64,000 nt of DNA from Sphyrna mokarran (taxonomy: Eukaryota), in the NCBI GenBank assembly GCA_024679065.1, contig JAGIQG010000036.1, positions 12,586,001 through 12,650,000 on the forward strand. Reading direction: 5' to 3'. Of this stretch, positions 1,692 to 41,057 are shown in pieces (the first letter of the stretch is position 1; every line of letters begins with the position of its first letter). Both the position numbers and the translations under genes were made by a program. The notes under the pieces were generated by a model that saw nothing but the letters and a program-made list of their open reading frames with translations, ran no database searches and was not told the DNA's origin.

Positions 1692-1706
1692 CCAGCAGAG
1701 GGCAGT
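1692..1706 (+). promoter_or_regulatory. CTCF-consensus motif
   Basis: CCAGCAGAGGGCAGT matches the vertebrate CTCF core CCASYAGRKGGCRSY. Confidence 0.7.
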
Positions 1707-2919
1707 GCATCACTGCCAACTATCTCCTTGTCTGCCAAAAGCTTTATGAATAACATAGAACATAAAACATAGAATATTACAGCACAATGTAGATCATTCA
1801 GCCCTCGATTGTTTAAACCAACCTAAAGCCCATCTAAGCAATACTATTCCAATATCATCCGAAATCATAAGTGGAGAAAATTGAGCCGCTGTAGCCTGTT
1901 CGTGTGCTTCTATGCTTGGAATTTCTACCCATCATATGATCGTTATAGTGCAGATGGAGGCCTTCTGCTCTGGCATTCTGAAAGAACCTTCTGCCCAATC
2001 AGGCTTCCTTGCTTAATCCTTTCACATTCTTTCTTGGCAGAGAGCGATTGAACTCACTTTTGAAATCTGGATCAAGCCTGCCTCCACCCCTCTCTAGAAG
2101 CCGGTCTCAGAGCGTTGAAGCATTTTGGAAAGTTATTAGCATTTTCCGCAGTGAAGACTGACCCAATCATTCAACATACGCCTGCCATTTCCTGGCTCCC
2201 CAGTATTTCTTCCCCTCCACCTCGTTCTCGAATGCGCCTACATTCACTTCTGTGACTTATGCGCATACACAGGTTGGTCCCCTTGCTCCTGCATCTCCTT
2301 TAGAGTCTACCCCGTTATTTTACATCATGTCCCCCACAATCCAGTCGTGTTATTCTTGTTATCTCTGACTGGAAAATGTACATTCCTCTTTCAACGTTAT
2401 CAGTTCCTGCGGGGGTTTCGAACATTAGCTCAGCGCTCAATCTTCGAAATTCTACACAATAGTGCAAAATCTGTGCAACCTGCGGAGAAAGTCTATGCGG
2501 AAGAAGATATAGAGTGCCTCCAGACAGCTGTGCCGTTCAATAAGATCCTGACTGACTAGGGCTCAGCCTCAAATCCGCTTTCCGCCTCTCCTCCACTGCA
2601 TAGAAAACTCTTGAAGGCTTCTGTTGTTCTCAGATCTAATGGATGGTAATATATTCAATGACACAGTTCCCACTGTTCTCTGAAGTATAAAATTCCAAAA
2701 CACCCGCTATCAAAGAAGAAATTCCTTTCATCTCCAACTTGTTTGTTCATCTCCAAGCATGTTTCACTCATATCACCTCTGGGTCTTCTAAACGCCAGTC
2801 GGAGGATTGTTCCAGCAAATTCGGGACTCTGTCCAGCAGGGCAAAAGCTTATCTGTTGAACACTCTTAATGTCTTTTTAATTTTGAACGTAGAATTACGT
2901 CGACCACAATAATTTACAT

Positions 2920-3470
2920 CAAAGGAAAAGTGGCCATTTGCTCTTTGAGCGTGCTCCACCATTCATTAGCATCGCGGCTGCTCGTCTAACTCATCAGCTA
3001 GTCCTGATTTCCTTTGATCCCTTTTGAATGCATTCAATGTTTTGGCATCAACTACTTCCTGTGGTAAAGAATTCCACAGGCCCACCACTGTTTCAGTGAG
3101 GAAATGGCTCCTCTCCTCTTTCCTGAATGGCCTATCCTGAATCCTCAGACTGCGACCTCTGGCTCTAGACTCCCCCACCACCGGGAACACACTCTTGCAT
3201 CTTATGTTCTGATTCTGTTAGCACTTTATAAGTCTCCATAAAATCCCCTCCATCCGTCTGAACTCCAACATAAACAATCCTAACCGAATCAATTTCTCCT
3301 CCTACTTCAGTCTCGCCATCCCCGGAATCAACCTGGTAAAGCTTCCCTGCACTACCCCGAGAACAAGAATATCCTTCCTCAGAAAAGGAGACTAAAACTG
3401 CACACGTTATTCTAGGTGCGGTCTCTGTATAATAGCTTTGCTCCTGTACCCCAAAACTCTCGCAATGAAC
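2920..3470 (-). mobile_element. Degenerate CR1 LINE 3' fragment
   Basis: Minus-strand peptide MFPVVGESRARGRSLRI..LWNSLPQEVVDAKTLNAFK is typical of the CR1 ORF2 C-terminus. Confidence 0.85.
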
Positions 3471-3664
3471 GACCTTTTCCTAACAATTAACCTTTCAATT
3501 TTGAAAACATTACTTTTTCATTTTCCTGTTAATCTTTTTCTGGTGTCGCTTTATCTACAGTTTCTGGTACCAATTGAGAGCAATTCCGCTTGTAATGTCC
3601 ACATTTTCTCTCTCCATCAACCTGTCAACGCGTCTTTGCAATATGTTCACATAAACCACATAAA

Positions 3665-3745
3665 CCAATCTGGGGTGAGGGGCGGGTGATGTTGGAAAGA
3701 GGCGGGGCTGTCAGTTAATAGAAGAAGCTGGGCTGACCATCAAAC
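3665..3745 (+). promoter_or_regulatory. Putative V promoter block of the CAWS family (CCAAT + GC box + CTGTCA)
   Basis: CCAAT 3665-3669 and GGCGGGGCTGTCAG 3701-3714. Homologous blocks lie ~100-160 bp upstream of the leader ATG in V3 (6446), V4 (10605) and V5 (13285). Confidence 0.5.
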
Positions 3746-3815
3746 AGATGAGCATTGCAATTTGTGTTTTCTTCCCAGTAAGAAAGATTGTTTAAAAGGG
3801 AACCTGAAGTGGAAG

Positions 3816-4222
3816 ATGTATCTGTTGCTGGCTCCTTTCGTCAGGTTTCACGGTGAGGAACTTTTCCAACAACAAATCATATTCAACATCTAAATCATCT
3901 TTCAACTTGTGGACCTCATTATTTGATTCCTTCTGTTCCTTCTACTTTTCTACATCGCTCGTTCTCGTTCCACGGTGCTTCCACGCAGAATGCCCAATTT
4001 CCTGATCTCTCTCTGTCTCTTCCTCAGATGTGCTCTCTACATGTACTGGTACAGGCAATTCCCGGGGAGGGAGCTGCAACTGATTTTTTATTCCAACTCT
4101 GACGCTCACATCAGCCGGTGGACGACTTCACAGCCAAGCGGCCGAATGAGTATGAGCTCAATTTGGAGTCCTCCAGCATACGGGTGAATCACACGGCCGT
4201 GCATTACTGCGCCTGGAGTCTT
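3816..4222 (+). pseudogene. TRBV: TCR V segment pseudogene V2 (CAWS family): leader 3816-3852, V exon 4028-4222
   Basis: Leader MYLLLAPFVRFH. The V exon is 195 nt versus 299 nt in V4, because a 94-nt deletion removes FR1 and the first Cys and a 10-nt deletion follows CDR2. It ends VHYCAWSL. Confidence 0.92.
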
Positions 4223-4261
4223 GACAGTGACTCAGAGAGATGGAGTAGTTCAACAAAAACC
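4223..4261 (+). other. Defective 23-RSS of V2
   Basis: Heptamer GACAGTG (invariant CAC lost), 23-nt spacer, ACAAAAACC 4253-4261. Confidence 0.92.
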
Positions 4262-4326
4262 CCAAAGGCAGCAGTAACAGCAGTAACATTTAGCAGCCCT
4301 CTTTTTCGGGCAGAACGAAAATATTC

Positions 4327-4830
4327 ATAGAAATCATAGAAACCCTAACGTACAGAGAGAGGCTGTTCGGCCCATAGAGTCTGCACCGACTACAATCCCA
4401 CCTAGGCCCAACCCCCAACCACTACATATTTTACCCACCAATCCCCTCTAACCTATGCATTTAAGGTCAATCTAGTTGGCCAATCAACCTAACCCGCACA
4501 TCTTTGGACTGTGGTAGGAAACCGAAGCACCTGGCGGAAATCCACGCAGACACGAGGGGAATGTGCAAACTCCACACAAGTTGGTGGCAATAAATTTTGA
4601 TTGCTGTCAAAATGAGTGATTGGGGGTAAAGACATCACGGCAAAGCTAAACAGAGAAAGGAGCAGTGATATTGCCAAAACTGAGAGGTTGTCGGGTCGAC
4701 TTGGGTAGGTGTCTGTGGGAGTTTGCGCTTTCTCCCCCTGCTTGCGTGGGTATTCTCCGGGTGCTCCGGTTTCCTTCCACACCCCAACACGTGCTTTTAG
4801 GCTGATTGGTGTTAACAAATTGTCCCTAAA
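4327..4830. mobile_element. Two tRNA-derived SINE fragments (HE1-like): ~4327-4580 minus and ~4690-4830 plus
   Basis: Core ..ggccaatc.acctaacccgcacatctttggactgtgg.aggaaacc..cacgcagacacg.. recurs more than 10 times in the window, with a (catagaa)n tail. Confidence 0.75.
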
Positions 4831-6605
4831 TTAGACCTCTCTCCATCTGGCACACATGAAATTCTCTAAATTTGCACACTTTATTGTGGAGTCCGAGAGG
4901 CGTAGGCAAAAGTCATAGGCAGAAGAAGGATTGGAATGAGGTGTTCACTGAATGTTAAAATGGTTGCGCAGGCTTTTTAGGCCGAAGGGCATGTTTCCTG
5001 TGCTGTTTTGTTGTTTGCCCTTTGTTATAACTATCAGAAAAATCCAACATATTCGATTAATTATTGACGCTGTCCATAGTTCCCGCTGCCAAAGTATCCA
5101 GTTTAAACAAAGACGTATTGTCTTCCATATTAATTCCAAAGACGTATTCCGGACGTATTCTCTTCCACCGTCTTTCGTCCAGAAAAAAACTTGAACTTCA
5201 TCTGCCTCCTCTCTGCCCCCTCCACCAATATATTCAGTTGAATTTCAGGAGCCCTTTTAATCATCAAATCATTCACTCCAGTTTGTGTCACTAAATGCGT
5301 CCTGACATAAGCAACGAACAGCCTGAAGTTTCTGCCCCCTTCACCTGGAACGCCCGCAGCACAGTCCTCAATCTGTACCCTCACTATCACCGTCCAGAGA
5401 AAATGTATTTCTCCACCAGCACAAAACAATTCTTTTATCACTTTCATGCGCCGTGTTGCTTTTACAAACACAGAGTTTATAAAGCAGTTTTTGAAACTTT
5501 CTCTTTTAATTGAAGCGAATAGAGAATGTATTTCAATGCGGATATGGAATCAACCGAACTCTGCCCAGAGAAACGTGATGTGGTTGCAATGGGAAATTTC
5601 TCTGGTGTATTATTTGCCTATTGTTGATTCTTCTCCGCTAATTTAAAAAAAAGTCTCTGAATTTGTATTCTTGTCATGTGATTCTTGTTGCCTGTCACTT
5701 CGAAATTCATATTCCTCTTTCAGTGTTATCAGTTCCTGCCAGGATTCGAATGTTAGATCAGCGCTCCAACTTCGAAGTTCGACAGAGGACATCTGGGAGT
5801 AGACATTTAGCCCCCCCAGGTAGCTGTGTCGTTCAATAAAATCCTAACTGGCTCCATAGTGGCCGAAAAACTGTCTCCCCTTCCCCCGCGTAGAAAAAAA
5901 ATCTTCACGTCTCTTGTTATCAAATCTAATTGGTGAAGAATTTATTCAATGATTCAGTTCCAACTGTTCCCTAAGATGTAGAATTCCTAAAATAACCGCC
6001 ATCAAAGCAGGAATGCCTCTTCGTTAGCGACTCAGACAGAAGATACTCTGACGCCAAGCTTCCTATTCAAGATTCCAGAACGAGAGCGGAGCTTCTTCGC
6101 AGCATCGACATTTTCAGCCCCTTCACAATACATATTTCACTCAGATCACACCTGATTCTTCTCACTGCCAACCCAAAGATTAATCCACCACGCTCAGGTC
6201 TCGGGCAGCAGAAGGAATACTTTACCTCTCGAACACTCTCGAGTGTCTTTTTACTCTTGAAAGTAGAAATACGTCAACCACCATAGCTTACTTTGAAGGA
6301 AATGTAATCCAGGTTTTTGCCGTCTGTTTACTGAATTTCCCCTCCAAACCCCGGGATTGTTCCGTGGATCTGAGCTGTGATTCCCCTCTGCATTATCTCC
6401 TCATTGTGTCTTTGTAACTTCCTGCTGCTGTCAACTCGACATAAACCAATCAGGAGGTGAGAGGTGGATCCGATTCAGGAACAGGGACGGGCTGCCAGTT
6501 AATGCGGGGGCTCCGCTGTCAGTTAAACAGTAAGGCGCAGGACCATTGCATTTTGAACGTTTTCCCAGTGAGAAAGATTGTTTAAACAGGAAGCTGAAGG
6601 GGAAG

Positions 6606-7116
6606 ATGTATCTATTGCTGGCTCTGTTCATTATGTTTCACCGTGAGGAGATTTCCCAACTATAATTCTTATTCAATATCTAACTTTCTTTTCCGCTTGC
6701 TGATCTCCCCCTTACTTTGATTCCTTCTTTCTATTTTTCTACGTATCTCTCTTCCCTCGATTCTCCATCGCACAGAATGACTAATTTCCTCATCTCCTCT
6801 CCCTGAGTGTTCCTCAGATATGAAGTCTCAGACTATCCTCCAGACTCCCCCTGCTACTTCCATATCTCCTGGGGACAGAGTGGGGCTGAAATGCACTGTG
6901 AAAGGGGGCAGCAGTGCTCCGAGCATGTTCTGCTACAGACAATACCCGGGGAGGGAGCTGCAGCTGATGTTTTACTCCGGCACTGAAGACCATGTCAGCC
7001 CAAATGAGGCGGTGGACGGTTTCAGAGCGAAGAGACCGAATGGCTGTGAGTTCAACCTGCAGTCCGCCAGCCTGCGGGTGAATCACTCGGCCGTTTACTA
7101 CTGCGCCTGGAGTCTT
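6606..7116 (+). CDS. TRBV: TCR V segment V3 (CAWS family), open frame but atypical (ORF class): leader 6606-6642, V exon 6818-7116
   Basis: MYLLLALFIMFH|HMKSQTILQTPPATSISPGDRVGLKC..SMFCYRQ..NGCEF..NHSAVYYCAWSL with GT/AG intact. The conserved FR2 Trp is replaced by Cys (TGC 6931-6933). Confidence 0.85.
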
Positions 7117-7155
7117 CACTGTAACTCACAGAGATGGAGCAGTTCAACAAAAACT
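7117..7155 (+). other. Non-consensus 23-RSS of V3
   Basis: CACTGTA, 23-nt spacer, ACAAAAACT. Confidence 0.9.
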
Positions 7156-8050
7156 CCAAAAGGTCGCAGGAAACAGCTGCTTCACAAAGCACTGCGCAGT
7201 GCATTAAGCGGCTGTGTTGTTTTCGTGCAGAGCGAAAATCCTTTTCACAATAAAGGCATAATTGTTATCAATGTGAGTGACTGAAGATAAAGAGACACTG
7301 GAAAAGTTAAACACGAAAAATGCCGAACATGTTCGCTTACGCATTCACTCTGTCTGCACTTCCCTTTGCCCCGCGAAAGCAGACAGCATAATTAAGGACC
7401 CCACGAACCCGGACATTTTCTCTTCCAACTTCTCCCGTCGGGGAAAAGATGAGGTCAGGTACCAGCCGACTCAAGAACAACTTCTTCCCTGCTGTCTTTG
7501 AATGGACCTACCTCACATTAAGTCTACCTTTCTCCACACCCTAGCTATGACTGCAACACTATACTCTGCACTCTCTCGTTTCTTTCTCTATGTACGGTAT
7601 GCTTTGTCTGTATAGCGCTCAAGAAACAATACTTTTCACTCTATACTATTACATGTACAATAATAAAGAAACCAAAAAAGGCTGTGAAGCCGCTAATAAA
7701 TTCATGAACGCAAATTACTGCGATCAATCCAAATCTACGAACAAATCCAATCGAAATTCAAAAGAAATGTCTTTGCTCCAAGGATGCTGAGGATGTGGAA
7801 CCCGCTATCACAGGGTGCGTCTTGCAGTGAACGTCCTAGGTTCTCTTAAGAATTGGAGTTGGAGAAGTAGGTGAGGGCTTTGTTGAGATATAACATCAAC
7901 TTTTGGAGCTAATCTATTGAACGTCTTCTCAGACTGAGGGCGAGTGTGTTCGCATCATTTGGCTTTGATGTAACAAGCAATGATAGAACATGAGACGAAA
8001 CCGCGAGACTTGGTGTGTTTTTTGGCACTCTGGTTTATTACTTCAAGTGG

Positions 8051-8065
8051 CCAGCAGATGGCAGT
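8051..8065 (+). promoter_or_regulatory. CTCF-consensus motif
   Basis: CCAGCAGATGGCAGT; paralogous to 1692. Confidence 0.7.
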
Positions 8066-9047
8066 ACATGGTCACGAACTATGTCCTTGTCTGTGAGAAG
8101 TTTTATAAAGAGGGGGAAAGAATTGAGCCGCTGTAAACTGTTCATGTGTTTCTATCCTTGGAATTCCTACTAATCACAGAATCCTTACAGTGTTTGGCTA
8201 ATCACATCTGCACTGGTAATCTGAAAGATCCTTCCTCCTGATCATGCTTCCCTGCCTTACCCCCGTAACCTTTCACATTCGTCCTTTGCAGATAGCGATC
8301 GAATTCCCTTTTGAAATCTCGATCAAGCCTGCCTCCATCACCCACTCAGGAAGCTTGTCAGAGTGTTAAAGCATGTTAGAATGTTAGTAGCGTTTTCTAT
8401 CGTGATTACTGACGCAAAGTATTTATTCAACTCCCCAGCCATTTCCTGGTTCCACATTATTCGTTTCCCCCACCCCTTTCTATTAGACGCGCGCGTTCAC
8501 ATTCATGATCTGCGCGCATATACATGGAGGTCCCCTTACTCCTGCACTTCCTTTAAAGTTTCTCCCTTTGTTTTGCATCGCCACTTTCTCCCTGCCCAAA
8601 TGGATCACTCTGCACTAAACTTCATGTGTCTCCTCTCGGCGCCCTCCACCAATATTTCCCGTTGAACATCAGGACTATTTTGCTCACTTGACAACACCTC
8701 CAATTATCGTATCATCTGCTACATTGGTTTCACTAAATATCTTCTGATATAAGAAAAGAACGTCTCTCCTCCCCCCTCCCCCCACACCCCGCCACAACGT
8801 CCCCGAACTCATTTGAAATTTCTACCCTCTTCCTCTGGAACGCCCATATTTCCAGACCCACCAACTACACCCCCACAATCACCTTCCAGAGAACATGCTT
8901 TCGTCCTCCGATCCAAACAGATTCTTTTAGAATCTTCGTGTTCCTGATTGGGATTAAAAATGCAGACTTTATAAGGCAGTTTTCTTTGAAACTTACGCTT
9001 TTAATTGAAACGGATAGAAAATGTACTTCAGTAGGGATAGTGGAAAC

Positions 9048-9331
9048 AATAGAACATAGAACATTACAGCGCAGAACAGGCCCTTCGGCCTTCGATGATG
9101 CGCCGACCAATTATGAAAAAAGCAATGACCCACCAAACTAAACCATTCCCTTCTCTTCCATAAGCTTATCAACTAACCTCTTAAACGCCACCAAACTTGG
9201 CGCATCTACAACTGCCGCAGACAGGGCATTCCACTCCGTAACCGTCCTCTGGGTAAAGAACCTACCTCTGATACCCGTCCTATAACTATCACCCCTTAAT
9301 TTAAAGCTGTGTCCCCTCGTGCTAATAGAAC
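9048..9331 (-). mobile_element. Young, heavily 5'-truncated CR1 insertion with 8-bp target-site duplication AATAGAAC
   Basis: STRGHSFKLRG..DAPSLVAFKRLVDKLMEEKGMV is nearly identical to the C-terminus of the 50-52 kb element. AATAGAAC occurs at 9048-9055 and 9324-9331. Confidence 0.9.
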
Positions 9332-9529
9332 TCTGTCCGGAGAACACGTGTGATGTGGTTGCAATGAGAAATAATTTAGGTGCATTAGTTGCCTATTGTT
9401 GACGCGCATCCGCTGATTTTAGTAAATGTGAAATCCCTTCATGTGATTTTTTTTCTATTTTTCACTGGAAAATTCATACCTTTCTTTCAATTTTATCAGT
9501 TCCTGTTGGAGTTCGAACATTTGATCATT

Positions 9530-9863
9530 TAGAAAGGGAACCAGAACGAGAGGGTACAGCCTCAAAATAAGGGGGTGGGGGATGGGGTGGGGGGCAGTTT
9601 AGAACAGAGTTGACCCGGAACTTCTCTCAGGGGGTGGTGAATCTCTGGAATTCTCTGCCCATTGAAGTGGTGGAGGTTACCTCCTTGAATATGTTTAAGT
9701 CACTGCTAGATAGATTTCTGATCAATAAGGGAATTAAGGGTTCTGGGGAGCAGGCGGGTAAGTAGAACTGATCCACTTCAGATCAGCCATGATCTTATTG
9801 AATGGCGGGGCACGCTCGGAGGGCTAGATGGCCTACTCCTGCTCCTATTTCTTATGTTCTTAT
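9530..9863 (+). mobile_element. CR1 LINE 3' fragment
   Basis: ..gaatctctggaattctctgccc..ggcctactcctgctcctatttcttatgttcttat tail. Confidence 0.8.
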
Positions 9864-10766
9864 CAGCACTCCAACTTCGAAATTCCACAAATAAGGTAGA
9901 ATCTGTGCAACCTGTTCAGGAAGGAGATGAGGTAGAGGCCTCCAGTCCCTCCAGATAGCTGCGCCGCTCAATAAATTCCTGGCTAGCTCCGTAGTAGCCG
10001 CAAATCAACTTTCTGCCTCCCCTTCCCCTGTGTTAAGAAACCCTGACGCCTTTGTTGTTCTCACATCTAACTGGTGGGAAATATATTCAATGATCTTGTT
10101 TCCGCTGCTCCCTTAGGTACACAATTCCGAAAATACCCGCCATTAGAGAAGAAATTTCTCTTCATCTCCGACTTAGACTGAATATTACCTGAGACCATGT
10201 TCCCTAGATCTAAATTTCCCAATGAGAGTGGAGCCTACTCTCAGCATTGACATTTCTCGCCTCTGTCACAATATTATATGTTGCTCTCAGATCACCTCTG
10301 CTTCTTCAAAAAAAATCAGCCGAGATTAATCGACCATGTTCAAGACTCCGACCAGTGGAGGCAACATTTTATCTATCGAATACTTTCGAATGTCTTTTTA
10401 CTTCTGAAAGTAGAACTACGTCGAACATAGTGTTCTGTATTGAAGGAAATGTGATTTAGATTTTTGCAGTCTATTTTTCTGAACTTCTCCTCCAAACTCC
10501 GGGATTGTTCTGTGGATCTGAGTTGTGATTCCTTCACACTTCCCCCTCTCCACCAACCCTTCAATGTGTCCTTGCAAGTCCTGCTGCTGCCAGCTCCACA
10601 TAAACCAATCAGGAGGTGAGGGGTGTGTCTGATACAGGAAAAGGGCAGAGCTGTCAGTTAATGTGGGGGCTGGGCTGTCAGTCGAACAGTGAAGAGAAGG
10701 AGCATTGCAATTTGCGTGTCTTCTTCCCAGTGAGAACATTTATTTAGTCGGGAAGCTGATGCGAAG

Positions 10767-11272
10767 ATGTACCTGTTGCTGGCTCTGTTCATCATGTTTC
10801 ACCGTAAGGAAACTTCCCAAAAACAATTCTCACTCAACATCTAACTTTACTTTCCACTTACTGATCTCCCTCTTCTTCTGATTCCTTCTGTTCTTCCTGT
10901 TTTTCTCTCTTTCCTCGATCCTCCACCACTCAGAGTGCTCAATTTCTTGATCTCCTCTCTGTCTCTTCCTCAGATGTGAAATCTCAGACTATCATTCAGA
11001 CGCCCGCCGCCACTTCCAAATCTCCAGGGGAGAGGGTGAGACTGAAATGCACTGTGGAGGGGAGCAGCAGTGCTCTTAGCATGTTTTGGTACAGACAACA
11101 TCCGGGGAGAGAGCTACAGCTGATGTTTTACTCCAACATTGCAAACCGCGTCAATCCAAATGAGGCGGTAGACGGTTTCACAGCGAAGCGACCGAATGAC
11201 TATGAATTCAACCTGGAGTCCCCCAGACTGTGGGTGAATCACTCGGCTGTGTATTACTGCGCCTGGAGTCTT
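10767..11272 (+). CDS. TRBV: TCR beta V segment V4 (CAWS family), apparently functional: leader 10767-10803, V exon 10974-11272
   Basis: MYLLLALFIMFH|HVKSQTIIQTPAATSKSPGERVRLKC..SMFWYRQHPGRELQLMFYS..NHSAVYYCAWSL. Both Cys and the Trp are present; splice sites are intact. Confidence 0.93.
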
Positions 11273-11311
11273 CACAGTGACTCAGAGAGATGAAGCCGTT
11301 CAACAAAAACC
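11273..11311 (+). other. 23-RSS of V4 (consensus)
   Basis: CACAGTG, 23 nt, ACAAAAACC 11303-11311. Confidence 0.97.
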
Positions 11312-12281
11312 CCAAAGGCAACAGGAAATACCTGCTACACTAAACACTGCTTTTAGCCGCCATTTTTTTTCCGTGCAGAGGGAAAATGCTTTTGATAATA
11401 AAAGCAGGATTGCTGTCAAGTGCGGAACTGGAAATAAAGAGTCTCCGGAAAACGTAAAGAGGAAGAGGAACAGCGGTGTTGCTAGAACTGAGTGGTTGCA
11501 ATCATCAGGGAAAATCGAACATGTTCGCTTACCCATGGATTCTCTCTATACCTACCCCTGTCCCGGAAAAGCAGACAGCATAATTAATGACCCCACGTAC
11601 TCCGAACATTCTCCATTCCATCATCTTCCATTGGAAAAAACATAACCAACACTCGTGACATACCAACCGACTCAAAACCAGCTTCTTCCCTGTTGCCATC
11701 AGACTTTTATACACCTACCTCACATTAATTTTATCTTTCTCGACACCCTAGCTATGACACTATATCCTGCACTCTCTCGTTTCCTTTTCTATGCTTTGCC
11801 TGAAGAAACAATTCTTATTCTATTACATGTGGCAATAACAAAGAAATCAAGAAAGGTGGGGGTGGACTGCCACTAATAAATCCATCAAACAATTTACTGC
11901 GGATGCTGTAACCCAAATGCACTAATAAATGCAACCGGAATTCAACAGATGCTGCTTTGCTCCAAGGTTACTGAGGATGTGGAACCCGCTATCACAGGGA
12001 GTGCCTCACGGTGAGCAGCGTTGGTTCAATTAAGAATTAAATAATTAAGTGGAGATGTAGATGAGGGAAACGTTCGGATATATCAGCAATCTTCTGAAGC
12101 TAATCTATTGAACATCGTTTCAGACTAGTGCGTTCGCATCAGCTAGTTTTGATGAAACTAGTAATGGTAAGACTTGAAGACGAAATAGTTGTGGCGTTTG
12201 AATGAAATGACTGAAAGGAATACAAAAATATTGAAGTGAAGAGGCTTGTTCTTTTGGACTCTGGTTTCTTCCTTCAAGGAG

Positions 12282-12296
12282 CCAGCAGGAGGCAGC
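12282..12296 (+). promoter_or_regulatory. CTCF-like motif
   Basis: CCAGCAGGAGGCAGC; paralogous to 1692 and 8051. Confidence 0.6.
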
Positions 12297-13440
12297 ACAT
12301 GACCATGAACTATCTGCTTGTCTGCCACAAGCTTTATAAAATGTTGGGGGGGGGGGTTCACCAACCGTGAATTATTTCTCAGTATGAAGAAACGCTTGTG
12401 GCGATTCAAACGCAAGGAGGCAGCAGAGTGGATTTTGCGACTGGAAATCAGTTCGGGCGAAAGCACTTTGGAAGAAAACTCACCCTGGCAAGAGGGGAAA
12501 CTCTTCAAAAGTCAAGACTAGTTTGAGATGTAATCGATAAGATAGCATATCCTTAGACAACATGGCACAATGTATAAATATAGAGCAAAGCCATTTTGGT
12601 TATGTTAGTTAGAACCATAGGATACGTAGAAGGTAGATTCCGCCCAATTTGTCTACCACGACACTCAGAAAGAGCATCTTAACCAGATGCTCGCACACCC
12701 ATTTCAGAATTATCTCCAAAACTCAAAACATTTCTCATGGCTAATCCACCCCTTTGGATACTAAAGTACAATTAACATGATGAATCCACCGATGCTAATT
12801 AGATACTACCCTTTCTGCAATCTGGTATTAGGTTTAAACGCACATTTCATTTCAAACCTGAGCCTCGCAACATTTTGCTTTTGTGGAGCGTCCTGGTTGC
12901 TTGCTGTTGATTTTCCTCTGCTCATTTTGGTAAACATCTCTCAATGTGAAATCCCCTCAGGTGTTCATTTCATTGTCATTTGGAAATTTCAATGTTATCC
13001 ATTCTTGCTGGGGCTCAAACATTAGATGAGCGCTCAAAATTCGACAGAATGTAACAGCATCCTTCCTGTTCAGCGGGAGCTCACCGCCGCCCCCCACCCC
13101 CGCCCCACCTCCCCGCCTAGGGAAACTCGTTCCAGAGTGCTAAAGCATTTTGGAATGTGAATTCCTCTCTAAAACCCCGGGATTGTTCAGTGGATGTGAG
13201 CTGTGATTCCTCCCCATTTTCCCGTCTCCATCAACCGCTCACTGAGCCTTTGCAACTTCCTGCTGCTGCCAAATGCGCATTAACCCAATCAAAGGATGAG
13301 GGGCGGGGCTGACACAGGAAAAGGACGGGGCCATGAGTCGTTAGAGGGTCGGCCTGACAATCAAAAGGAGACGGTGCATTGCAATTTGAGTGTTTTTTCC
13401 CAGTGAAAAAGATTGTTGAAAAGGAGAGCTGAAGTGGAAG

Positions 13441-13930
13441 ATGTATCTATTGCTGTCTCTGTTCTTCATATTAACGAGCTTTCCCAACAATAATTCTTAT
13501 TCAATATATAACTTTACTTTCCACTTGCTGACCGCCGTTTTCCTCTGATTCCGTCTGTTCTTTCTATTTTCATTTTCTTCCCTATTTTTCCTGCATCTCT
13601 CACACAGAGTGCCCAATTTCCTGATCTCTCTATCATTTCCTCAGATGTGGAGTCTCAGATTATCCGTCAGACTCCCGCCGCCGTTTCCAAATCTCCAGGG
13701 GAGAGAGTGGAACTGGAATGCACCGTGGAGGGGAGCAGCTGTACTGGTACAGACAATACCCGGGGAGGGAACTGCAATTCATGTTTTACTCCAACGGTAA
13801 AGAGCATGTCAGTCCAAATAAGGCGGTGGATGGTTTCACAGCGAAGCGACCAGATGACTATGAGTTCAAACTGGAGTCCTCCAGCCTGAAGGTGAATCAC
13901 TCGGCCGTGTATTACTGCGCCTGGAGTCTT
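13441..13930 (+). pseudogene. TRBV: TCR V segment pseudogene V5 (CAWS family): leader from 13441, V exon 13645-13930
   Basis: Leader MYLLLSLFFI has lost the CACC|GT splice donor. The V exon is 286 nt; a 13-nt CDR1 deletion (..GGGAGCAGC^TGTACTGG..) shifts the frame, and the ORF track shows the two halves in different frames. Confidence 0.92.
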
Positions 13931-13969
13931 CACAGTGACTCAGAGACTTGGAGCAGTTCAACAAAAACC
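13931..13969 (+). other. 23-RSS of V5 (perfect consensus)
   Basis: CACAGTG, 23 nt, ACAAAAACC 13961-13969. Confidence 0.97.
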
Positions 13970-14324
13970 CCAAAGGCAGTAGCAAACACCTGTTTGAACC
14001 AAACCGTGCTATCACAGTTCACTTCGGTAGATAAAATGTGTGATTGGAACAAGAAACGGGACAAAATGAACTATTAAGGATAGCGAATGTGAATATCAAG
14101 TTAAGTCAGAATGATGACAAAATAACGAGTTTAAAGGTATTAGGATTCTTCAAATAAAGTTGTGTCTTTGAAATGTGAAACTTAACAGCGGAACTGACTG
14201 AGATGTTTCAAATTGTGAAATGGATTGGGCAGAGTAGAGGAATGTTCACTTCTGCAGGAACATCAGAACCACAAAACACGAGGAGAAGATAGTCACTAAT
14301 CCCAGGGAGAAGTCAGAAGCTACT

Positions 14325-14605
14325 GCTTCAGCGCGCCAGGGGCCTGGACTCGATTCCCGGCTTGGTTCCCTATTTGTGTAGAGGCTGCACATTCTCTCCA
14401 TGTCTGCGTGGGTTTCCTCCGTGTGCTCCGGTTCCCCCCCCCCACTCCAAAGATGTGCGGGTTAGGTAGACTTGCGGTGCTAAATTGCCCCTTAGTGTCA
14501 GGGATGTAGCTAGGGGTTATGGGGATATGGTCTGGATGGGATTTTGCTGTGTGCAGACTCGATGGGCCTAAGAACCTCCTTTAGCACTATGATTCTATGA
14601 TTCTC
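14325..14605 (+). mobile_element. HE1-like tRNA-derived SINE
   Basis: cagcgcgccagggg..ggactcgattcccggcttgg..cacattctc.ccatgtctgcgtgggtttcctcc.. ending in (tatgattc)n. Confidence 0.8.
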
Positions 14606-14974
14606 ATTTCTCACCGAGTGGAACTCGCTACAGCATGACTAAGAACAAAGAACAAAGAACAACACAGCACAGGAAACAGGCCCTTCGGCACTACAAGCCC
14701 TCCGCCGCCCATTTTAACATTCAGCGAGTGCCTCATTCAATCCTTCTTCTACCTACGACTTTTATCTATGCTTCTTGGACTCTGCAGTAAAGAGGCAAAT
14801 AATTCAGAGAATTAAATGTGCTCCAGATTAAGGGAGTCCGACTGTCGATTCCATCTTCTGACAAGTTTATTTATCGGTAGGTACATCAGACCACGAAACA
14901 CATTGGAGACTATGGCATGGTTGAACAGGAAAGGGGAATGCCATTCAGCCCATCTGGAACCTATTGCATAAGTG

Positions 14975-15240
14975 TACGTTTGTTTATTAGTCTCACGAGA
15001 AGGCATACAGTAGCACTGCAATGAAGTTGCTGTGAAAATCCTCCAGACGCCACACGCCAGCGCCAGTTTGGGCACACCGAGGGAGAACTTAGCATGGCCA
15101 ATGCACCGAACTAGTTCACTTTTCCAACTGTGGACGAAACCTACGCAGACACGGGAAGAACATGAAGACTCCGCACAGACAGTGACCTAAGCTGCGAATG
15201 GTCCTGGCGCTGTGAGGCAGCAGTGCTAACCACTGTGTCA
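14975..15240 (-). mobile_element. HE1-like SINE
   Basis: Ends ..gcgctgtgaggcagcagtgctaaccactgtg (tRNA-like head on the minus strand). Confidence 0.8.
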
Positions 15241-15434
15241 GCGGGCCGCCAGCAGAAAATCCAGTCAGTCCTTTAAAGTCTGTTACACAGAAACAAAACA
15301 GTGCGGCGTGGCATTGGGCATGTTCGCATTTCTTGCACAGGGCAAGCATGAGGCCATTCAATCCCTCAAACCTGTTACATAGGAAAAAGAAGAGGTCTAT
15401 TCAACCCTATCAAATCTGTTACATGGAAAAAAAT

Positions 15435-15685
15435 AAGAAGTTTCACAACACCGGGTTAAAGTCCAGTAGATTTATTTGGTAGCACGAGCTTCCAGAGTGC
15501 CGCTCCTTCATCAGGCGAGAATGTATCACCTGATGAAGGAGAGGTGAGTGGGCCACTCATCTGATGAAAGAGAAATGCTCCCGAAAGCTTGTGCTACTAA
15601 ATAAACCTCTTGGACTTTAACCTGGTGTTGTGACACTTCTTACTGTACCATCCTCAGTCCAACGCCAGCGTCTCCACAGCATGGG
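15435..15685. mobile_element. Penelope-like element terminal remnant arranged as an ~80-bp inverted repeat
   Basis: 15435-15515 is the reverse complement of 15560-15641; motif CTGATGAA..CGAAAGCT..AAATAAA..TGGACT..AACCTGGTGTTGTG. Confidence 0.65.
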
Positions 15686-15774
15686 AAAAGGAGGAGGTCG
15701 TTCCAATCGGAATTAATGGCAATGACTGGGAACTTATTGGGAATCCAAATAGTTGTATTTTGATTTTCCAGGGG

Positions 15775-16120
15775 AGGCATTATCGCTAGGCTATTAATCC
15801 AGAAATTCAGCTAATGATCTGGGGACCCGGGTTCGAATCCCATCACTGTAGGTGGTGGAATTTGATTTAATTAAAAAAAATGGAATTAAGAATCCACTGA
15901 TGATCTTGAAACAATCGTCGATTGTCGAAAAAAAACCCCATCTTGTTCACTAATGTCCTTTAGGGAAGGAAATCTGCAGTCCTTACCTGGTCTGGCCTAC
16001 ATGTGACTCCAGATTCACAGCAATGTGAGTTGCTGTGTGAGACTCCCAACTGTCCTCCAACAGCAGCCAAGACTGGGCAATAAATGTTGGCCAGTCAGCA
16101 ACGCCCAAGTCCCACCAGTT
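15775..16120 (+). mobile_element. Second tRNA-derived SINE family
   Basis: B-box-like GGGTTCGAATCCC at ~15828. The body (..gttcactaatgtcctttagggaagg..ggtctggcctacatgtgactccag..gggcaataaatg) recurs at ~19200-19655 (minus), 41605-41930 and 46020-46370. Confidence 0.7.
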
Positions 16121-16300
16121 AATTCAAAATTAGTGATTGCACATTAACACCCAGGTTAATTCTGATTGGTAGACCAGGGGAAGAGGGCGTGTCTAAATCT
16201 TCCTTATTTCTTTGCGATATCAGGTTTCTCTCATTGATTTGAAAAGAGCGGATTGGCTTCTCACAAAGCTCCAAGCTGAAGCGGAAATTTCACATTGATA

Positions 16301-16769
16301 ATGTTCCTGTTGCTGGCTCTAATGATCGTGTTTCACCGTAAGGCAATTTTTCAAAAGATACTTCTTATTAATAATTTCTTCTTTTCTTGCTTTTTATCTT
16401 CTTTTGTATCGATAATTCTCTCCAACTTGACCTGAACGTTCCTATCACTGGTTTCATTCTCTCCCTGTCCCAGGTGCCCATTCGCAGACTATCCGCCAGA
16501 CTCCTGCCGCTGTCTCCAAAAATCCTCAGGAGCCAGTGCATCTCAAATGCACTGTGAAGGGTGTCAGTGATCCTTACATGTACTGGTACCGACAATACCC
16601 GGGCCAGGAGCTCCGGTTAATGTTCTATTCTATGATGGTCGATGCTGTGAATCCGAATAAGCCCGTGGACGGTTTCAGAGCCGAGCGACCGAGTGATTCT
16701 GAGTTCAATTTGGAATCCTCCAGCCTGCGGATGAATCACTCGGCAATGTATTACTGCGCCTGGAGTATT
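16301..16769 (+). CDS. TRBV: TCR beta V segment V6 (CAWS family), apparently functional: leader 16301-16337, V exon 16474-16769
   Basis: MFLLLALMIVFH|RAHSQTIRQTPAAVSKNPQEPVHLKCTVKGVSDPYMYWYRQ..NHSAMYYCAWSI. Confidence 0.93.
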
Positions 16770-16808
16770 CACAGTGACTCAGAGAGATAGAACAGTTCAA
16801 CAAAAACC
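16770..16808 (+). other. 23-RSS of V6 (consensus)
   Basis: CACAGTG, 23 nt, ACAAAAACC 16800-16808. Confidence 0.97.
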
Positions 16809-16944
16809 CCAAAGCCAGCCGCAAATGACCGTTCTAAACAAATAGATCTGCTCTCCCTGGCAGAACACGACAATAGGAGGAGGTAAAGTAAAGCCCCGCC
16901 CTCTCTATCATTGACTGGAGATGAGAATTGGGATTTTCATTGAA

Positions 16945-17256
16945 TCAAGGAACTCCTACAGTGCACAAAGAGGCCATTTGCCCATCGAATCTGCACCGGT
17001 CACAATTCCACCCAGGCCTTATCCTTGTAACCCTATGTAGTTACCCTGCTAATCTCTCTGACACTCATAATTTGTTATGCAAATCCACATAATATACACA
17101 TCCTTGGACTGTGGGAGGAAAACTGAGCACCCGGAGGAAACCCACGCAGACACGTGGAGAGCATGCATACTTCGCATAGACAGTGATCCAAGCCGGGAAT
17201 TGAACCCGCGACTCTAGAACTGTGAGGCAGTGGTCCTAACCAAGTGCCACCATGCC
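16945..17256 (-). mobile_element. HE1-like SINE
   Basis: Same SINE core and head as the other copies. Confidence 0.8.
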
Positions 17257-17727
17257 TCCGAACATTAAAACATGAAATTAGAGAAGGGTGGGATAGGGTT
17301 GATGTCAGGAAGAGAGCATCACTTGTCTATTAGATCAGAACGTGGGGGACGGGTCATAGATATCAAAAACATTCATTAATAATTCCAACAGTGGAACTTC
17401 TGTTATGTGATTATCCCGAGAATGGTTAGATTGTGAAAGTCACAGAGAGAGAGAGATTGGATGTGGACGGGGAGTGGTAGGGGTAGGGTCTTCGATGCAT
17501 GAAGACAGGAGGGAGATAGCAGTACAAATATATGTTGATGGTACACCGTGTTTTGAGATATACAGCACATCCAGCCAACAGACACCATTGGCTTGAGTAG
17601 GCGAGGAAAACAAATAAAAATGATGCATTCAGAAAGAAATGGGAGGAAAGGGAAACGGAGTCGCGAAAGAAGACAAAGAGAAGGGAAAGATTGGGTTTGG
17701 GCGGTTGCTTTTTGTTTTTGCAGGCGG

Positions 17728-17743
17728 GCTGCAGAGGGCGCTG
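17728..17743 (+). promoter_or_regulatory. CTCF-like motif
   Basis: GCTGCAGAGGGCGCTG; core with two 5' mismatches, in sequence not obviously homologous to the other sites. Confidence 0.55.
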
Positions 17744-22113: not shown

Positions 22114-22574
22114 ATGTTAGTGTTACTGAGCCTCGCGATCTTATTTCAATGTGAGTGATTATTAACTCAGTTATTCTTACCTCTGTATTTTTGTCTTTCT
22201 ATCTTCCCTCGTTCCTTTCCCGCATCACCTCACAAATGACTCCAGTTCTCATCTATTCATCTCCCATCTTATTGTCAGGTGTGAACTCGCAAACTATCCG
22301 CCAGACTCCCGCCGCTGTCTCCAAATATCCCGGGCAGAGTGTGAAACTGACCTGCGTTGTCGAGGGCTCCAGTAACCCTGCTATGTTCTGGTACAGACAA
22401 TACCCAGGAAAGGGGCTGAAGGTGATGTTTAACTCCGCGGTTAGCGGTTCCGTGAATCCAAATGAGCCGGTGGACGGTTTCTCCGCCGAGCGACCGAGTA
22501 GCTCTGAGTTCAACTTGAATTCCTCCAGCCTGCGGGTGAATCACTCGGCCATGTATTATTGCGCCTGGAGTCTT
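22114..22574 (+). CDS. TRBV: TCR beta V segment V8 (CAWS family), apparently functional: leader 22114-22150, V exon 22279-22574
   Basis: MLVLLSLAILFQ|CVNSQTIRQTPAAVSKYPGQSVKLTCVVEGSSNPAMFWYRQYPGKGLKVMF..NHSAMYYCAWSL. Confidence 0.93.
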
Positions 22575-22613
22575 CACAGTGGCTCAGAGAGATGGAGCAG
22601 TTCAACAAAAACG
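22575..22613 (+). other. 23-RSS of V8
   Basis: CACAGTG, 23 nt, ACAAAAACG. Confidence 0.96.
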
Positions 22614-24900: not shown

Positions 24901-25084
24901 AAACTATAGTAATGACAAGTAATGATACACATGAAGACAAAATAAAGATAGCAGGAGCACATGAAAGAAATAGCCGATTAAAAGAAGTGCGAAGAAATAA
25001 GAGGTTTTTTTGGACGCTCATTTCTTTCTTCAGCGGCAGAAGGCGCTCCAGGATCAACATATCTCATATTATTTGTGAAACGTT

Positions 25085-27936: not shown

Positions 27937-28420
27937 AGGCCTGTCCGTTTCTACTGCACTTCGCCTAAGGTTTGGATTTCTGATTTCGCCCGGCGCCTCC
28001 TACCTCAAATATACTTGTCGCCACCAGAGAGCGCACTTCCCCCAATCATCATCTCGATTATTTTAAATATAAACATGTCAATACGTCATGCTCCAAACTT
28101 CTGAATCTATGGAAATACAGGCTAGATTTATCGGCACTGCTGACTTTATTAACACTATTTCACTTACACATCACCACATCGATCTGATGTACCTGCACTG
28201 CACACTCTTTACTGTTTATTCCCTCTCTATTCACTTATGAATGCTGATTTGGCAATCTTCTGTTCCCAGTAGCCTTTGCGTTCCACCAATCAGAATGAAA
28301 CGGAGGTTGTCCAAAACTGCTCTTATTATTTCCCTCGAAATAAAGTCCAGGCTTGATCTCTCAATACGCCAGACTCCGGATCTGGAACCTTCCTTCATTT
28401 TGAGGGAAATAGAGCAAAAG

Positions 28421-28923
28421 ATGCACCTGTTACTGGGTTTGATAATCATACTTCGCGGTAGGAATGTTTAATCAATTTTTGCCTCCTTCTTTGTCTCTTA
28501 CTTTATTATTGCTTCTCATTTTCTTTCGCTCTTCTTTCCCGTACTCCCTCCCCCTCGTTCTTTCACCAATTTTCTCTTTTTTTCTCCCCGGAATGCCCAA
28601 CTAACTGGTCTTCTCTTCCCCATCCAGGCGTGAATTCACAGACTATCCACCAGACCCCTGCCGCTGTCTCCAAATCCTCCGGGGAGGAAGTGGAACTAAT
28701 GTGTTCCCTGGATGGCACCAGTACTGCTGTAATGTTCTGGTACAGACAATTCCCAGGAAAAGAGCCTCACTTGATGTTTTATTCCATGGCTGCAGAAAGC
28801 GTGAATTCAGAAGGGACGGTAGACGGTTTCACAGCCGTGAGACCGAATATGAATGAGTTCAACCTGAATGCCCCCAACCTGCTGGCGAATCACTCGGCCG
28901 TGTATTACTGCGCCTGGAGTCTT
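28421..28923 (+). CDS. TRBV: TCR beta V segment V9 (CAWS family, divergent), apparently functional: leader 28421-28457, V exon 28628-28923
   Basis: MHLLLGLIIILR|GVNSQTIHQTPAAVSKSSGEEVELMCSLDGTSTAVMFWYRQFPGKEPHLMFYS..NHSAVYYCAWSL. Confidence 0.93.
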
Positions 28924-28962
28924 CACAGTGACTCAGAGAGATGGAGAAGTTCAACAAAAACG
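28924..28962 (+). other. 23-RSS of V9
   Basis: CACAGTG, 23 nt, ACAAAAACG. Confidence 0.96.
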
Positions 28963-30680: not shown

Positions 30681-31094
30681 GACATGATTTAATAACCCCC
30701 GGTTTCTGTTTGGTGAATCCACGCTGTATTACCTCAAAGCCAACTGCAACTTATATTGACTTGGCGCCTTTAATGCAATAAAATGTCCTAAAACGTTTGT
30801 TGTGTCTTTTGTAAAACACACTTTGACATCGAGCCGCGTAAGAATTATATGAGGACAGATGGCCAACAGATGGCCTCCAAGCGGGAGGTTCTAAGCACAG
30901 TTTTGAAAACGGAAAGGGGGTAGAAAAGCGGAGAGATTTAGCTAAGAAAATCCATTACCTGGAGTCTTAATTTCTGCCAATAGCAGCGCCATTGAAGTCG
31001 AGGATGCTAGAGGCCGCAATTTGGGGCTGTATCAATCTGTGAGGGTTTTGGTGCTGGAGCAGGTTATAGAAGCAGGAAGGACTGGACAGGATTT

Positions 31095-31345
31095 CAGGCA
31101 CGAGTGGCATAGTCGTTAGCACTGCTGCATCACAGCGCCAGGGACCCGGTCCGACTCCCGTCTTGGAAGACTACCTGTGCAGAGTCTGCATGTTCTTCCC
31201 GTATTTCTGTGGGTTTCCCCTGGATGCTTCGGTCTGCTCCCACAATCACAAAGATATGCTAGTTGGGTGCATTGGCCATGCTCAGGCGCCTGAGTATGGT
31301 GACACGGGGACTTTCACAGCCATTTCAGTGCACTGTTAATATAGG
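31095..31345 (+). mobile_element. HE1-like SINE
   Basis: ggcacg.gtggcatagtcgttagcactgctgcatcacagcgccagggaccc head. Confidence 0.8.
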
Positions 31346-31369
31346 CATATTTGTAACACTAATAAATAT

Positions 31370-36437: not shown

Positions 36438-37161
36438 ATGCATTCTTCGATACTGTCCTATGCGTTGTCCCTGATCCCATTGGTGGGTAAGTGAAGGGGG
36501 TGCCTGGAGTTATATTGAGCCCTTTGTAATTTGGAGCAGGAATGTTGCAATAATCTGTAAAACGCGTATTCAATCAGTATATAGACAAAGAGAGATAGAA
36601 TAAGTAAATGTAAGTGAAAGAGTGAGAAGTAAATAATCATGAAAGGAAAGAATGTGAAGGACAGGGAGTCATAGGCTGGATTTTTATCGCCCCGCCCGCC
36701 ACAAGAATCGGAGAAGCGAGGGATGGGCAACGGAAATGTCTGTTGACTCGACGATAGCGGCTGTAAAAATTCCATTTAAAAAATAACTTACTGAGCAGAT
36801 TCATGCATCGTATTTCTGAGGGATTGAAAGCCCCTAATTTCTAATTATTGCTCTTTTCTTTCGAGGTCTTGGCACGTCTCAGAAGATTGTTCAATCCCAG
36901 CCGTATGTGTCGGTCAGACAGGGCCAGTCTGTGACTATCCCATGCGTGCAACACGGGGATGATGCTTACATGTACTGGTACCGCCAGTACCCAGTCCAGG
37001 GACTCCAGAATATCTTGCATGCTGTACACATGGACAACCCGAGCAGGTCGGACGGGATCCCGAAGAGATTTTTCGCCAAGAAGACGCCAGCTGGCAACTT
37101 CGATCTAACCATAGGGCAACTGCAGCCGAACGACACGGCTGTGTATTTCTGTGCAGTGAAG
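36438..37161 (+). CDS. TRBV: TCR V segment V10 (CAVK singleton, probably Vbeta), apparently functional: leader 36438-36486, V exon 36866-37161
   Basis: MHSSILSYALSLIPLV|GLGTSQKIVQSQPYVSVRQGQSVTIPCVQHGDDAYMYWYRQYPVQGLQNIL..DTAVYFCAVK. Donor GTAAGT; the acceptor is GAG after a pyrimidine tract. Confidence 0.88.
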
Positions 37162-37200
37162 CACAGAGACGCAGTGGGGCTGAACCGTGGAACAAAAACC
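37162..37200 (+). other. 23-RSS of V10
   Basis: CACAGAG, 23 nt, ACAAAAACC 37192-37200. Confidence 0.95.
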
Positions 37201-39804: not shown

Positions 39805-40005
39805 ACATAGAACATAGAACATTACAGCGCAGTACAGGCCCTTCAGCCCTCGATGTTGCGCCAGCCAGTGGACCCTCTAACCTAACTATTCCAATACCAT
39901 CCATATGCCTATCCACCGACCATTTGAAATGCCCCCAAAGTAGGCGAGTCCACAACTGCTGCAGGCAGGGCATTCCACGCCCTCACCACCCTCTCTGTAA
40001 AGAAA
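39805..40005 (-). mobile_element. Short CR1 3' end
   Basis: (aacatag)n tail, ..cagcgcagtacaggcccttc..gcaggcagggcattccacgccctcaccaccctct. Confidence 0.8.
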
Positions 40006-40301
40006 TTGATTGCGGTACTGAAGTCTGCACGTTGAAGAACACTAGTTATCGCCATATGTTCTGACACAGACAGTGATCAAGTTGGAATTAGAAGCCTATT
40101 TTTATGATGCGGGAGCAAGGGCTATCACCAAGCACAACTCTGCGTTGTTTGAGGTATCAGAATCAGCATAACGCTGTTTCACGTCGATGTGTGGGACGTT
40201 GCTAACCCTCACGCCGCTATCTATTTCTGCGCTGATAGTTTCACCATGTTTGAAAAGGCGGATCCACGGAAATGAAAGCCTGCACACAGGGTTGCTTTAC
40301 A

Positions 40302-40316
40302 CCGCTAGATGGCAGA
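40302..40316 (+). promoter_or_regulatory. CTCF-consensus motif
   Basis: CCGCTAGATGGCAGA. Confidence 0.6.
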
Positions 40317-41042
40317 ATTCGGTAGGTTTTTCTGTTATCATGGAATGATATAGTCGGAGGAGTTCGTTTTGATCACGTCGCTAGCCAGCACTTCCAAAAA
40401 ACTATTCAGTAAGTTCTAGTCTCCTGTCTTTGTCCCATAGCTCTAAGAGAGTACCTCTTTCAAGAATCGAGCCAGTTTCTTCGTTGATAAAATTGACTCA
40501 TTACTGGGATATTGCATTCTAACACTTGTAGGAATACTGACATAAAAAAACTCACCATATCCCAGCTGATTCTTAAATCTGTCTCCTCTGTTGACCGAAT
40601 CTTCTGTCGCTGGAAGGATTTTGTTTTTAATTACAAGACAAAACCCCCAATAATTTTGAAGAACTTGATTAAATCTTCTGCTACAATCTCTGTTTTCAGG
40701 AGAACGATCACATCTTTTCCAGTCCCTCCACATTACCCTCTGATATGGTACTGATAAGTATGCTTTCCACATCGCTCAGAACTTAAAACAGTTCCAAAAT
40801 TATCCTTCCCAGAATTTGGCACGACGCTTCAGCTGAATGGTGACTCCAAATGATTCGGTTGGATCTCCTGCAATTAATCTGCATTTTTAAAATTGAGGTT
40901 GTATTCATTTGTGGCTTCTCATTTGGTGTTTGCATTTCCAAAAATAGATAAATTATCAGGGATCTCTGACACTGAATCTCCCCGTTATTCATTTATATTG
41001 CTCATTGACAGCATTGGATTGAATGTCACTGCTTAATTTCCA

Positions 41043-41057
41043 TCACCAGATGGCAAC
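41043..41057 (+). promoter_or_regulatory. CTCF-like motif
   Basis: TCACCAGATGGCAAC. Confidence 0.45.

Follow-up and report, generated by a model that had tools for sequence, protein, structure and literature searches.

Inward-facing candidate CTCF motifs in a two-armed T-cell receptor beta locus of Sphyrna mokarran

The window analysed here is a stretch of 64,000 nucleotides from the shark Sphyrna mokarran (assembly GCA_024679065.1, contig JAGIQG010000036.1, below C949; C949:12,586,001-12,650,000). It is the left arm of a cartilaginous-fish T-cell receptor (TCR) beta locus (TRB), in which arms of variable (V) segments lie on either side of a central block of diversity, joining and constant segments (D-J-C). 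Strong matches to the CTCF motif are enriched in this locus and most of them face D-J-C. The enrichment of strong sites is a firm result and the orientation a weaker one; the pattern as such is real, and duplication explains it in part. We consider it somewhat better than even (a probability of about 0.55) that these motifs are functional CTCF sites which fold the two-armed locus much as in mouse Tcrb, with V-to-DJ joining by diffusion and not by one-way scanning.

In the proposed mechanism CTCF would bind the predicted sites in thymocytes, and the plus-strand sites of the left arm would pair with the minus-strand sites of the right arm and with those at 12,671 and 12,721 kb. Cohesin extrusion would fold both V arms over the central D-J-C, and RAG would capture the V ends by diffusion. 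The spacing of about 1 kb between some V segments and the motifs behind them would have arisen if the expansion of one V subfamily also multiplied one or a few sites, which were then retained. If the sites are bound, the folding mechanism would date to the origin of adaptive immunity; sharks are, to our knowledge, the oldest living group with RAG receptors, and the literature that we found on CTCF control of V(D)J recombination all comes from mouse. That oriented CTCF folding of TCR loci dates to the jawed-vertebrate ancestor, here in a mirror-symmetric form whose arms loop across D-J-C and whose beta chains arise mostly by inversion, is a tentative idea that may well be wrong. The two-armed layout offers a natural test of scanning against diffusion, because both arms use the same D-J. 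What is new here is the large inverted arm with its own predicted inward-facing motif array, a variant of the mouse-Tcrb-type layout.

Architecture of the locus

We read 464 kb around the window; counts of sites and V segments refer to the 254 kb locus and leave out two V segments and the sites in a 13-kb near-perfect inverted duplicate left of the window. The preliminary description of the window had predicted that D-J-C lies to the right, and a D segment with its recombination signal sequences (RSSs), six J segments and a C exon were located 36 kb right of the window, on the plus strand throughout:

C949:12,685,742-754, plus strand: D segment with a 12-RSS and a 23-RSS
C949 12,686-12,689 kb, plus strand: six J segments
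C949 12,699.7 kb, plus strand: C exon

The J segments contain FGxG, the V segments are followed by a 23-bp RSS and a C-beta exon is present, as is characteristic of TRB. The D core agrees with the conserved TRBD sequence quoted in PMC11754216 at 11/12 letters. The initial view of the region as a TCR V array could be narrowed to TCR beta because the matches of the C exon are mostly TCR beta chains and the best single-domain matches of segment V8 among solved structures are TCR beta chains as well. Immunoglobulin heavy chain (IgH) miniclusters of the type V-D-D-J lie on one contig with TCR-alpha/delta-like V segments, which is the elasmobranch arrangement (PMC12227049).

A tblastn search gave 48 V-like segments. 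The left arm has 20 of them, 16 on the plus and 4 on the minus strand; another 26, all on the minus strand, are located beyond C, and the remaining 2 are those in the inverted duplicate. A segment was scored as intact by a script if it had an open frame, Cys23, Trp41, Cys104 and a usable RSS. This was the case for 32/46 segments, 10 of which join by deletion and 22 by inversion. The right arm (C949:12,723,000-12,836,000) holds the 26 inverted V-like segments downstream of C-beta, 18 of them intact and belonging to several families. Judged from these signals, most of the beta repertoire would need inversion.

Density and orientation of the motifs

For scoring we used a CTCF count matrix that resembles JASPAR MA0139.1, with bit values that are approximate; 12.72 bits correspond to p 1e-5 and 16.82 bits to p 1e-6. 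All six plus-strand matches reported previously were recovered, as 19-mers that start at window positions 1689, 8048, 12279, 17725, 40299 and 41040. Our scan adds a plus-strand site at 28018 and two minus-strand sites at 57921 and 61519, near the inverted segment V12. At p<=1e-5 the window contains 7 plus and 2 minus sites, where 100 dinucleotide shuffles gave means of 1.06 and 0.78 and maxima of 5 and 4. At p<=1e-6 it contains 4 and 1, compared with 0.08 and 0.12; these shuffles ignore duplication.

The density of motifs in the locus was compared with a background of 561 kb, made up of 40 stretches of 10 kb each and 161 kb from the flanks of the locus. In this background 23 sites reach 12.72 bits and 5 reach 15 bits. 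Sites of at least 15 bits number 17 in 254 kb, where 2.26 were expected, and 10 lineages remain after merging of paralogues (P=1.3e-4). When the columns of the matrix were permuted, so that the permuted matrices met the same duplications as the real one, 2/1421 reached 17 sites at 15 bits and 3/1421 matched the asymmetry.

The preliminary description also expected a bias in orientation. The distal left arm holds 8 plus and no minus sites of at least 12.72 bits, and the distal right arm 1 plus and 10 minus. The proximal left arm, in which V segments point both ways, has 0 plus and 3 minus, D-J-C has 0 and 1, and the proximal right arm has none on either strand. At p<=1e-5, 19/23 sites thus face D-J-C (P=0.0013), so that the bias is evident in the raw counts, but with paralogues merged it shrinks to 11/15 (P=0.059). 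The lone outward-facing site of the right arm sits in a repeat, the flanks of which translate like the open frame at window 50032-52410; one inward-facing site is also repeat-borne.

Motifs in reverse orientation near D-J-C, which had been anticipated from the polarity of the window, are present at two positions:

C949:12,671,257, minus strand: CTCF motif of 21.2 bits, 14.5 kb before D, facing the left arm
C949:12,721,048, minus strand: CTCF motif of 14.0 bits, between C and the first inverted V, facing the left arm

The strong outward-facing site at 12,671,257 has a copy without the motif. No plus-strand site of 11 bits was found between C949 12,627,040 and 12,775,870, and therefore the only possible partners of the right-arm sites would be those of the left arm, the alternative being a stall at active D-J chromatin.

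Motif families and spacing behind the V segments

The V segments and motifs of the window are listed in window coordinates:

243..575, plus: V1, TRBV pseudogene of the expanded subfamily, in-frame stop, perfect 23-RSS at 537-575
1689..1707, plus: CTCF motif of 22.5 bits, family A, 1.1 kb behind V1, facing D-J-C
4011..4261, plus: V2, broken V with a dead heptamer, no motif behind it
6823..7155, plus: V3, probable pseudogene without Trp41, two mismatches in the heptamer, RSS at 7117-7155
8048..8066, plus: CTCF motif of 23.8 bits, family A, 0.9 kb behind V3
10979..11311, plus: V4, intact TRBV, perfect 23-RSS
12279..12297, plus: CTCF motif of 18.6 bits, family A, 1.0 kb behind V4
13649..13969, plus: V5, broken V with a perfect RSS, no motif behind it
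16482..16808, plus: V6, intact TRBV, perfect 23-RSS
17725..17743, plus: CTCF motif of 17.7 bits, 0.9 kb behind V6, probably a distant copy of right-arm family B
22287..22613, plus: V8, intact TRBV, no motif within 1.7 kb behind it
25030..25048, plus: weak CTCF motif of 11.1 bits, distant family A copy, 2.5 kb behind V8
28018..28036, plus: single-copy CTCF motif of 16.5 bits, 0.9 kb upstream of the heptamer of V9
28636..28962, plus: V9, intact TRBV, 23-RSS
30860..30878, plus: weak CTCF motif of 12.0 bits, single copy
36877..37200, plus: V10, intact TRBV of another family
40299..40317, plus: CTCF motif of 13.9 bits, single copy
41040..41058, plus: CTCF motif of 14.6 bits, single copy, last plus site of at least 11 bits for the next 149 kb
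44795..45124, plus: V11, open frame, poor RSS
55842..56170, minus: V12, intact inverted TRBV, joins only by inversion
57921..57939, minus: CTCF motif of 17.6 bits, 2 kb upstream of V12, facing the plus-strand array, away from D-J-C
61519..61537, minus: CTCF-like match of 13.9 bits at a repeat edge, listed copies without the motif

For segment V7 of the preliminary description no tblastn match was obtained; a remnant alone is visible near 18.7-18.9 kb. Between V11 and V12 lies an open frame of 792 codons (50032-52410, minus strand), which presumably derives from a reverse transcriptase of a long interspersed nuclear element (LINE). The 13-kb inverted duplicate mentioned above (C949:12,533,962-12,546,941 against 12,578,134-12,591,122, including window 1-5122) is 99.6% identical, carries V1, V2 and their motifs, and adjoins a 6.4-kb direct duplicate of 99.8% identity. 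These near-perfect duplicates are either a very recent duplication or an assembly artefact.

Measured from the ends of the V1, V3, V4 and V6 nonamers (575, 7155, 11311 and 16808), the distances to the motifs are 1117, 896, 971 and 920 bp, in agreement with the spacing of about 1 kb given earlier. Two of these four V segments are pseudogenes, V1 by an in-frame stop and V3 probably, as it lacks Trp41 and its heptamer is poor. Paralogy of the first three sites was confirmed, but the motif core is not the lone conserved island that had been described, as the conserved block extends over about 85 bp and the 40 bp flanks are 75-76% identical. The V6 site, which had been taken to lie in apparently unrelated sequence, is probably not independent; it has 17/19 letters in common with two right-arm sites located 0.6-0.7 kb behind V segments. 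A search with nhmmer linked it to these family B sites at E=1.4e-4 with the motif in the query and gave no match with the motif masked.

Altogether 13/29 sites of at least 11 bits belong to three families. Family A consists of the sites behind V1, V3 and V4 and the weak copy behind V8, family B of five sites in the right arm, probably joined by the V6 site, and family C of three right-arm sites. Neither nhmmer nor anchored flank alignment gave homology among the three families. On inspection we also thought of a leader exon or a splice acceptor in the flanks of families A and B, an idea that was given up untested.

A site of at least 11 bits is located 200-1400 bp behind 11/24 members of the expanded V subfamily and behind 0/22 other V segments. 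Within the subfamily it follows 5/15 intact and 6/9 broken members (Fisher P=0.21), and over the whole locus 5/32 intact V segments have one. We conclude that the 1-kb spacing is a duplication product in one V subfamily and cannot date the design to the jawed-vertebrate ancestor. The proposal of an ancestral V-CTCF cassette lacks support, because the spacing is limited to one expanded subfamily, consists mostly of duplicated copies and is not seen behind TCR-alpha/delta-like V segments.

The spacing also bears on whether RAG scanning of the Igh type is the main route of joining, as the preliminary description implied. According to this explanation, extrusion anchored at D-J would reel the V segments past RAG and a site behind each RSS would stall it. 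The left-arm plus-strand V segments are convergent with the 12-RSS of D, the distal left sites all face D-J-C, and for nine V segments a site of the same direction is located 0.5-1.3 kb past the heptamer, compared with 3.0 expected (5000 shifts, P=2e-4, paralogy not removed). Scanning at Igh requires that all usable V RSSs are convergent with the recombination centre, whereas 22/32 intact V segments of the shark join only by inversion. Inversional joins cannot arise by RAG scanning (PMC10772921), an inverted VH in mouse Igh fails to join (PMC10121685), and the downstream site is present at just 5/32 intact V segments. We therefore regard scanning as a very improbable main route; it may remain in use for the 10 V segments that join by deletion.

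Conservation of the motifs and the passenger explanation

When the motifs were masked and their flanks used for blast, every copy found for families A, B and C still scored at least 11.8 bits, and the listed copies of repeat-borne or coding matches scored at most 3 bits. Conservation was measured on paralogue pairs, which share ancestry and are not independent of one another. In subsets chosen by anchor, P was 0.035 for sites of at least 15 bits (9 pairs) and 0.025 for inward-facing sites (10 pairs). Conservation of the motifs above their flanks is suggestive only.

An upstream module bound by zinc fingers 9-11 is found at about 13% of CTCF sites, and its sequence and spacing were taken from PMC12885311. 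The module had no part in site selection; repeat-borne sites were dropped and one member per family was kept. Among 38 representatives the module matched best at the expected offset (4.42 versus 3.47 letters), a value reached by 0/131 other offsets. The signal comes from 26 representatives of a TCR-alpha/delta-like region on contig C994 described below (0/131 offsets). Taken together, the conserved copies, the enrichment in the TCR-alpha/delta-like region and the upstream module favour, at the level of sequence, real CTCF sites in shark TCR V arrays.

Several results weigh against functional sites that fold the locus. The three sites of the proximal left arm face outward, away from D-J-C, and no site of at least 11 bits near D-J-C faces the right arm. 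The locus spans just 250 kb. The ratio of locus to background is reached by 46/1421 permutations at 15 bits and by 167/1421 at 12.72 bits, and the merged density at 12.72 bits (15 versus 10.4, P=0.11) is not above background. The merged inward bias, depending on the threshold, is 14/19 (P=0.032), 11/15 (P=0.059) or 7/10 (P=0.17), and permuted matrices with at least 10 matches are equally one-sided in 13/172 and 4/10 cases, since the copies of a duplicated cassette give whatever motif they contain the same direction. On contig C738, which contains a second TCR-beta D-J-C, 8/8 sites of at least 12.7 bits in about 125 kb are on one strand, with a single V segment there. All 12 paralogue pairs found by their flanks gave P=0.055 against neutral drift at the flank rate, matching of informative columns (83/96) was close to that of the flanks (725/894, P=0.12), and for the 12 TCR-beta representatives taken by themselves the upstream module did not reach significance (11/131 offsets reach it).

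The borderline outcome of the merged orientation and conservation tests fits an explanation in which the motifs are passengers: a few chance matches beside an ancestral V would have been multiplied and flipped with it as the V was duplicated and inverted, and would play no part in recombination, bound or not. The membership of 13/29 sites in three families and the restriction of the downstream site to one subfamily, in which it is as common behind broken as behind intact V segments, also fit this explanation. The same applies to the orientation of the motifs, which is that of the nearest V in 26/29 sites; facing D-J-C and travelling with V are therefore inseparable, the mixed region with its three outward-facing sites being the exception. 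We nevertheless hold the passenger explanation to be unlikely. Ten separate lineages reach 15 bits, where 2.26 were expected, all flank-found copies of families A to C keep the motif and those of repeat-borne matches do not, and the TCR-alpha/delta-like region shows an independent enrichment together with the upstream module.

Comparison with known loci

The reading of the motifs as functional sites of a Tcrb-like fold is based in part on the following likeness. In mouse Tcrb, 18 V sites face DJ and the sites 5'PC, CBE1 and CBE3 face back (PMC10772921); 5'PC lies 27 kb and CBE1 3 kb ahead of D-beta1, and CBE3 precedes the inverted Trbv31 (PMC10772921, PMC5859386). The shark locus resembles this arrangement in that most motifs of the V array face D-J, a bias that is borderline once paralogues are merged, a strong back-facing motif precedes D (at 14.5 kb, compared with 27 kb in mouse) and another separates C from the first inverted V. 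These two minus sites, at 12,671,257 and 12,721,048, take the positions of 5'PC and CBE3, a positional likeness and not homology. Inversional joining is a further common feature; an inverted RSS at mouse Tcrb still recombines (PMC10772921, PMC5859386). The sites at D-J of mouse Tcrb are not required for loops from V to the centre, and enhancer chromatin can serve as the anchor (bioRxiv 10.1101/2024.10.13.618029). The two loci differ in that mouse has one inverted V 3' of C and the shark has 26, with their own inward-facing motifs and no partner near D-J-C. Moreover, the mouse sites are proven by chromatin immunoprecipitation and knockout, whereas the shark sites are motif matches; a search for chromatin immunoprecipitation runs covering window 8000-17999 returned none, which weighs neither way. 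In skate, the borders of topologically associating domains obey the CTCF orientation code (PMC10115646).

Mouse Igh with IGCR1 and the 3' CTCF-binding elements (CBEs) likewise has a VH array with motifs in one direction that face the D-J end (PMC10121685, PMC5859386). In contrast to mouse Igh, in which all VH segments are deletional, two thirds of the intact shark V segments are inversional, and the shark locus is about ten times smaller. Mouse Igk, with Cer/Sis, mixed CBEs and joining by diffusion, is similar in that most V segments join by inversion (PMC10121685, PMC5859386), and capture in the shark would then be by diffusion as well. The mixed CBEs of Igk are independent of V orientation, unlike the shark motifs, which follow the nearest V and are near-uniform within each distal arm.

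Inverted TRBV segments 3' of C-beta are known from amniotes, with one in skink and mammals and five in tuatara (PMC11754216, PMC10464911); the available text of both papers does not mention CTCF. The shark shares inverted V segments downstream of C-beta, but here the inverted block is the larger arm, with 26 V-like segments of several families. Our literature search found no report on CTCF in antigen-receptor loci of sharks or on a two-armed layout; subscription journals, which may describe the layout, were mostly outside its coverage.

Other receptor loci in the genome

The TCR-alpha/delta-like region (C994:5,150,001-5,550,000) contains 34 sites of at least 15 bits in 400 kb, which belong to 20 families and are oriented 22 plus and 12 minus. 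This count was reached by 0/1421 permuted matrices, and the region is a stronger case for CTCF than the beta locus. Sites are located 0.5-1.8 kb upstream of V in 12/40 segments (3.3 expected, P=0.001), many of them 0.7 or 1.5 kb before the V heptamer, and a downstream site follows 2/40 V segments (2.9 expected). The region includes four J segments and two IgH miniclusters. The alpha/delta label of this region and the gamma label of a locus on contig C1326 are derived from motifs and linkage; structure search gave weak support for the former and none for the latter, since the V segment of C1326 matched antibody chains. In the small gamma-like locus (C1326:82,554,000-82,623,000; 7 V and 3 J segments called) no site of at least 11 bits is located among the 7 V segments, and one motif of 23.6 bits lies 4 kb past the last V, facing away.

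The second TCR-beta D-J-C (C738:57,900,000-57,965,000, minus strand) is about 70% identical to the C949 copy around D-J-C, and four V-like segments only were found there in 260 kb. No homologue of any non-repeat strong site was detected in this copy.

In the IgH miniclusters on C994 and C1082 a strong CTCF motif that points back to V is located about 350-380 bp beyond the JH heptamer. It reaches at least 12.72 bits in 10/13 stretches (the J signal was not called in one), and its copies are paralogous. The miniclusters had been considered as a negative control, which their own conserved motif ruled out.

Such motifs could point to a local role, in which the TCR sites would be bound and selected as insulators or accessibility elements of single V units or clusters and not as anchors of loops to D-J-C. 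V-D-D-J units of about 1.5 kb need no long-range folding and nevertheless conserve the motif, and the TCR-alpha/delta-like region has sites of either direction upstream of its V segments. We consider such a role for the beta sites quite unlikely, as a local insulator does not require one shared direction along each arm, and the 3' site of mouse Trbv1 is a proven loop anchor (PMC10772921). In the miniclusters themselves the motif could insulate clusters from one another. A weaker motif of the same direction is often located 0.6 kb upstream of their V heptamer.

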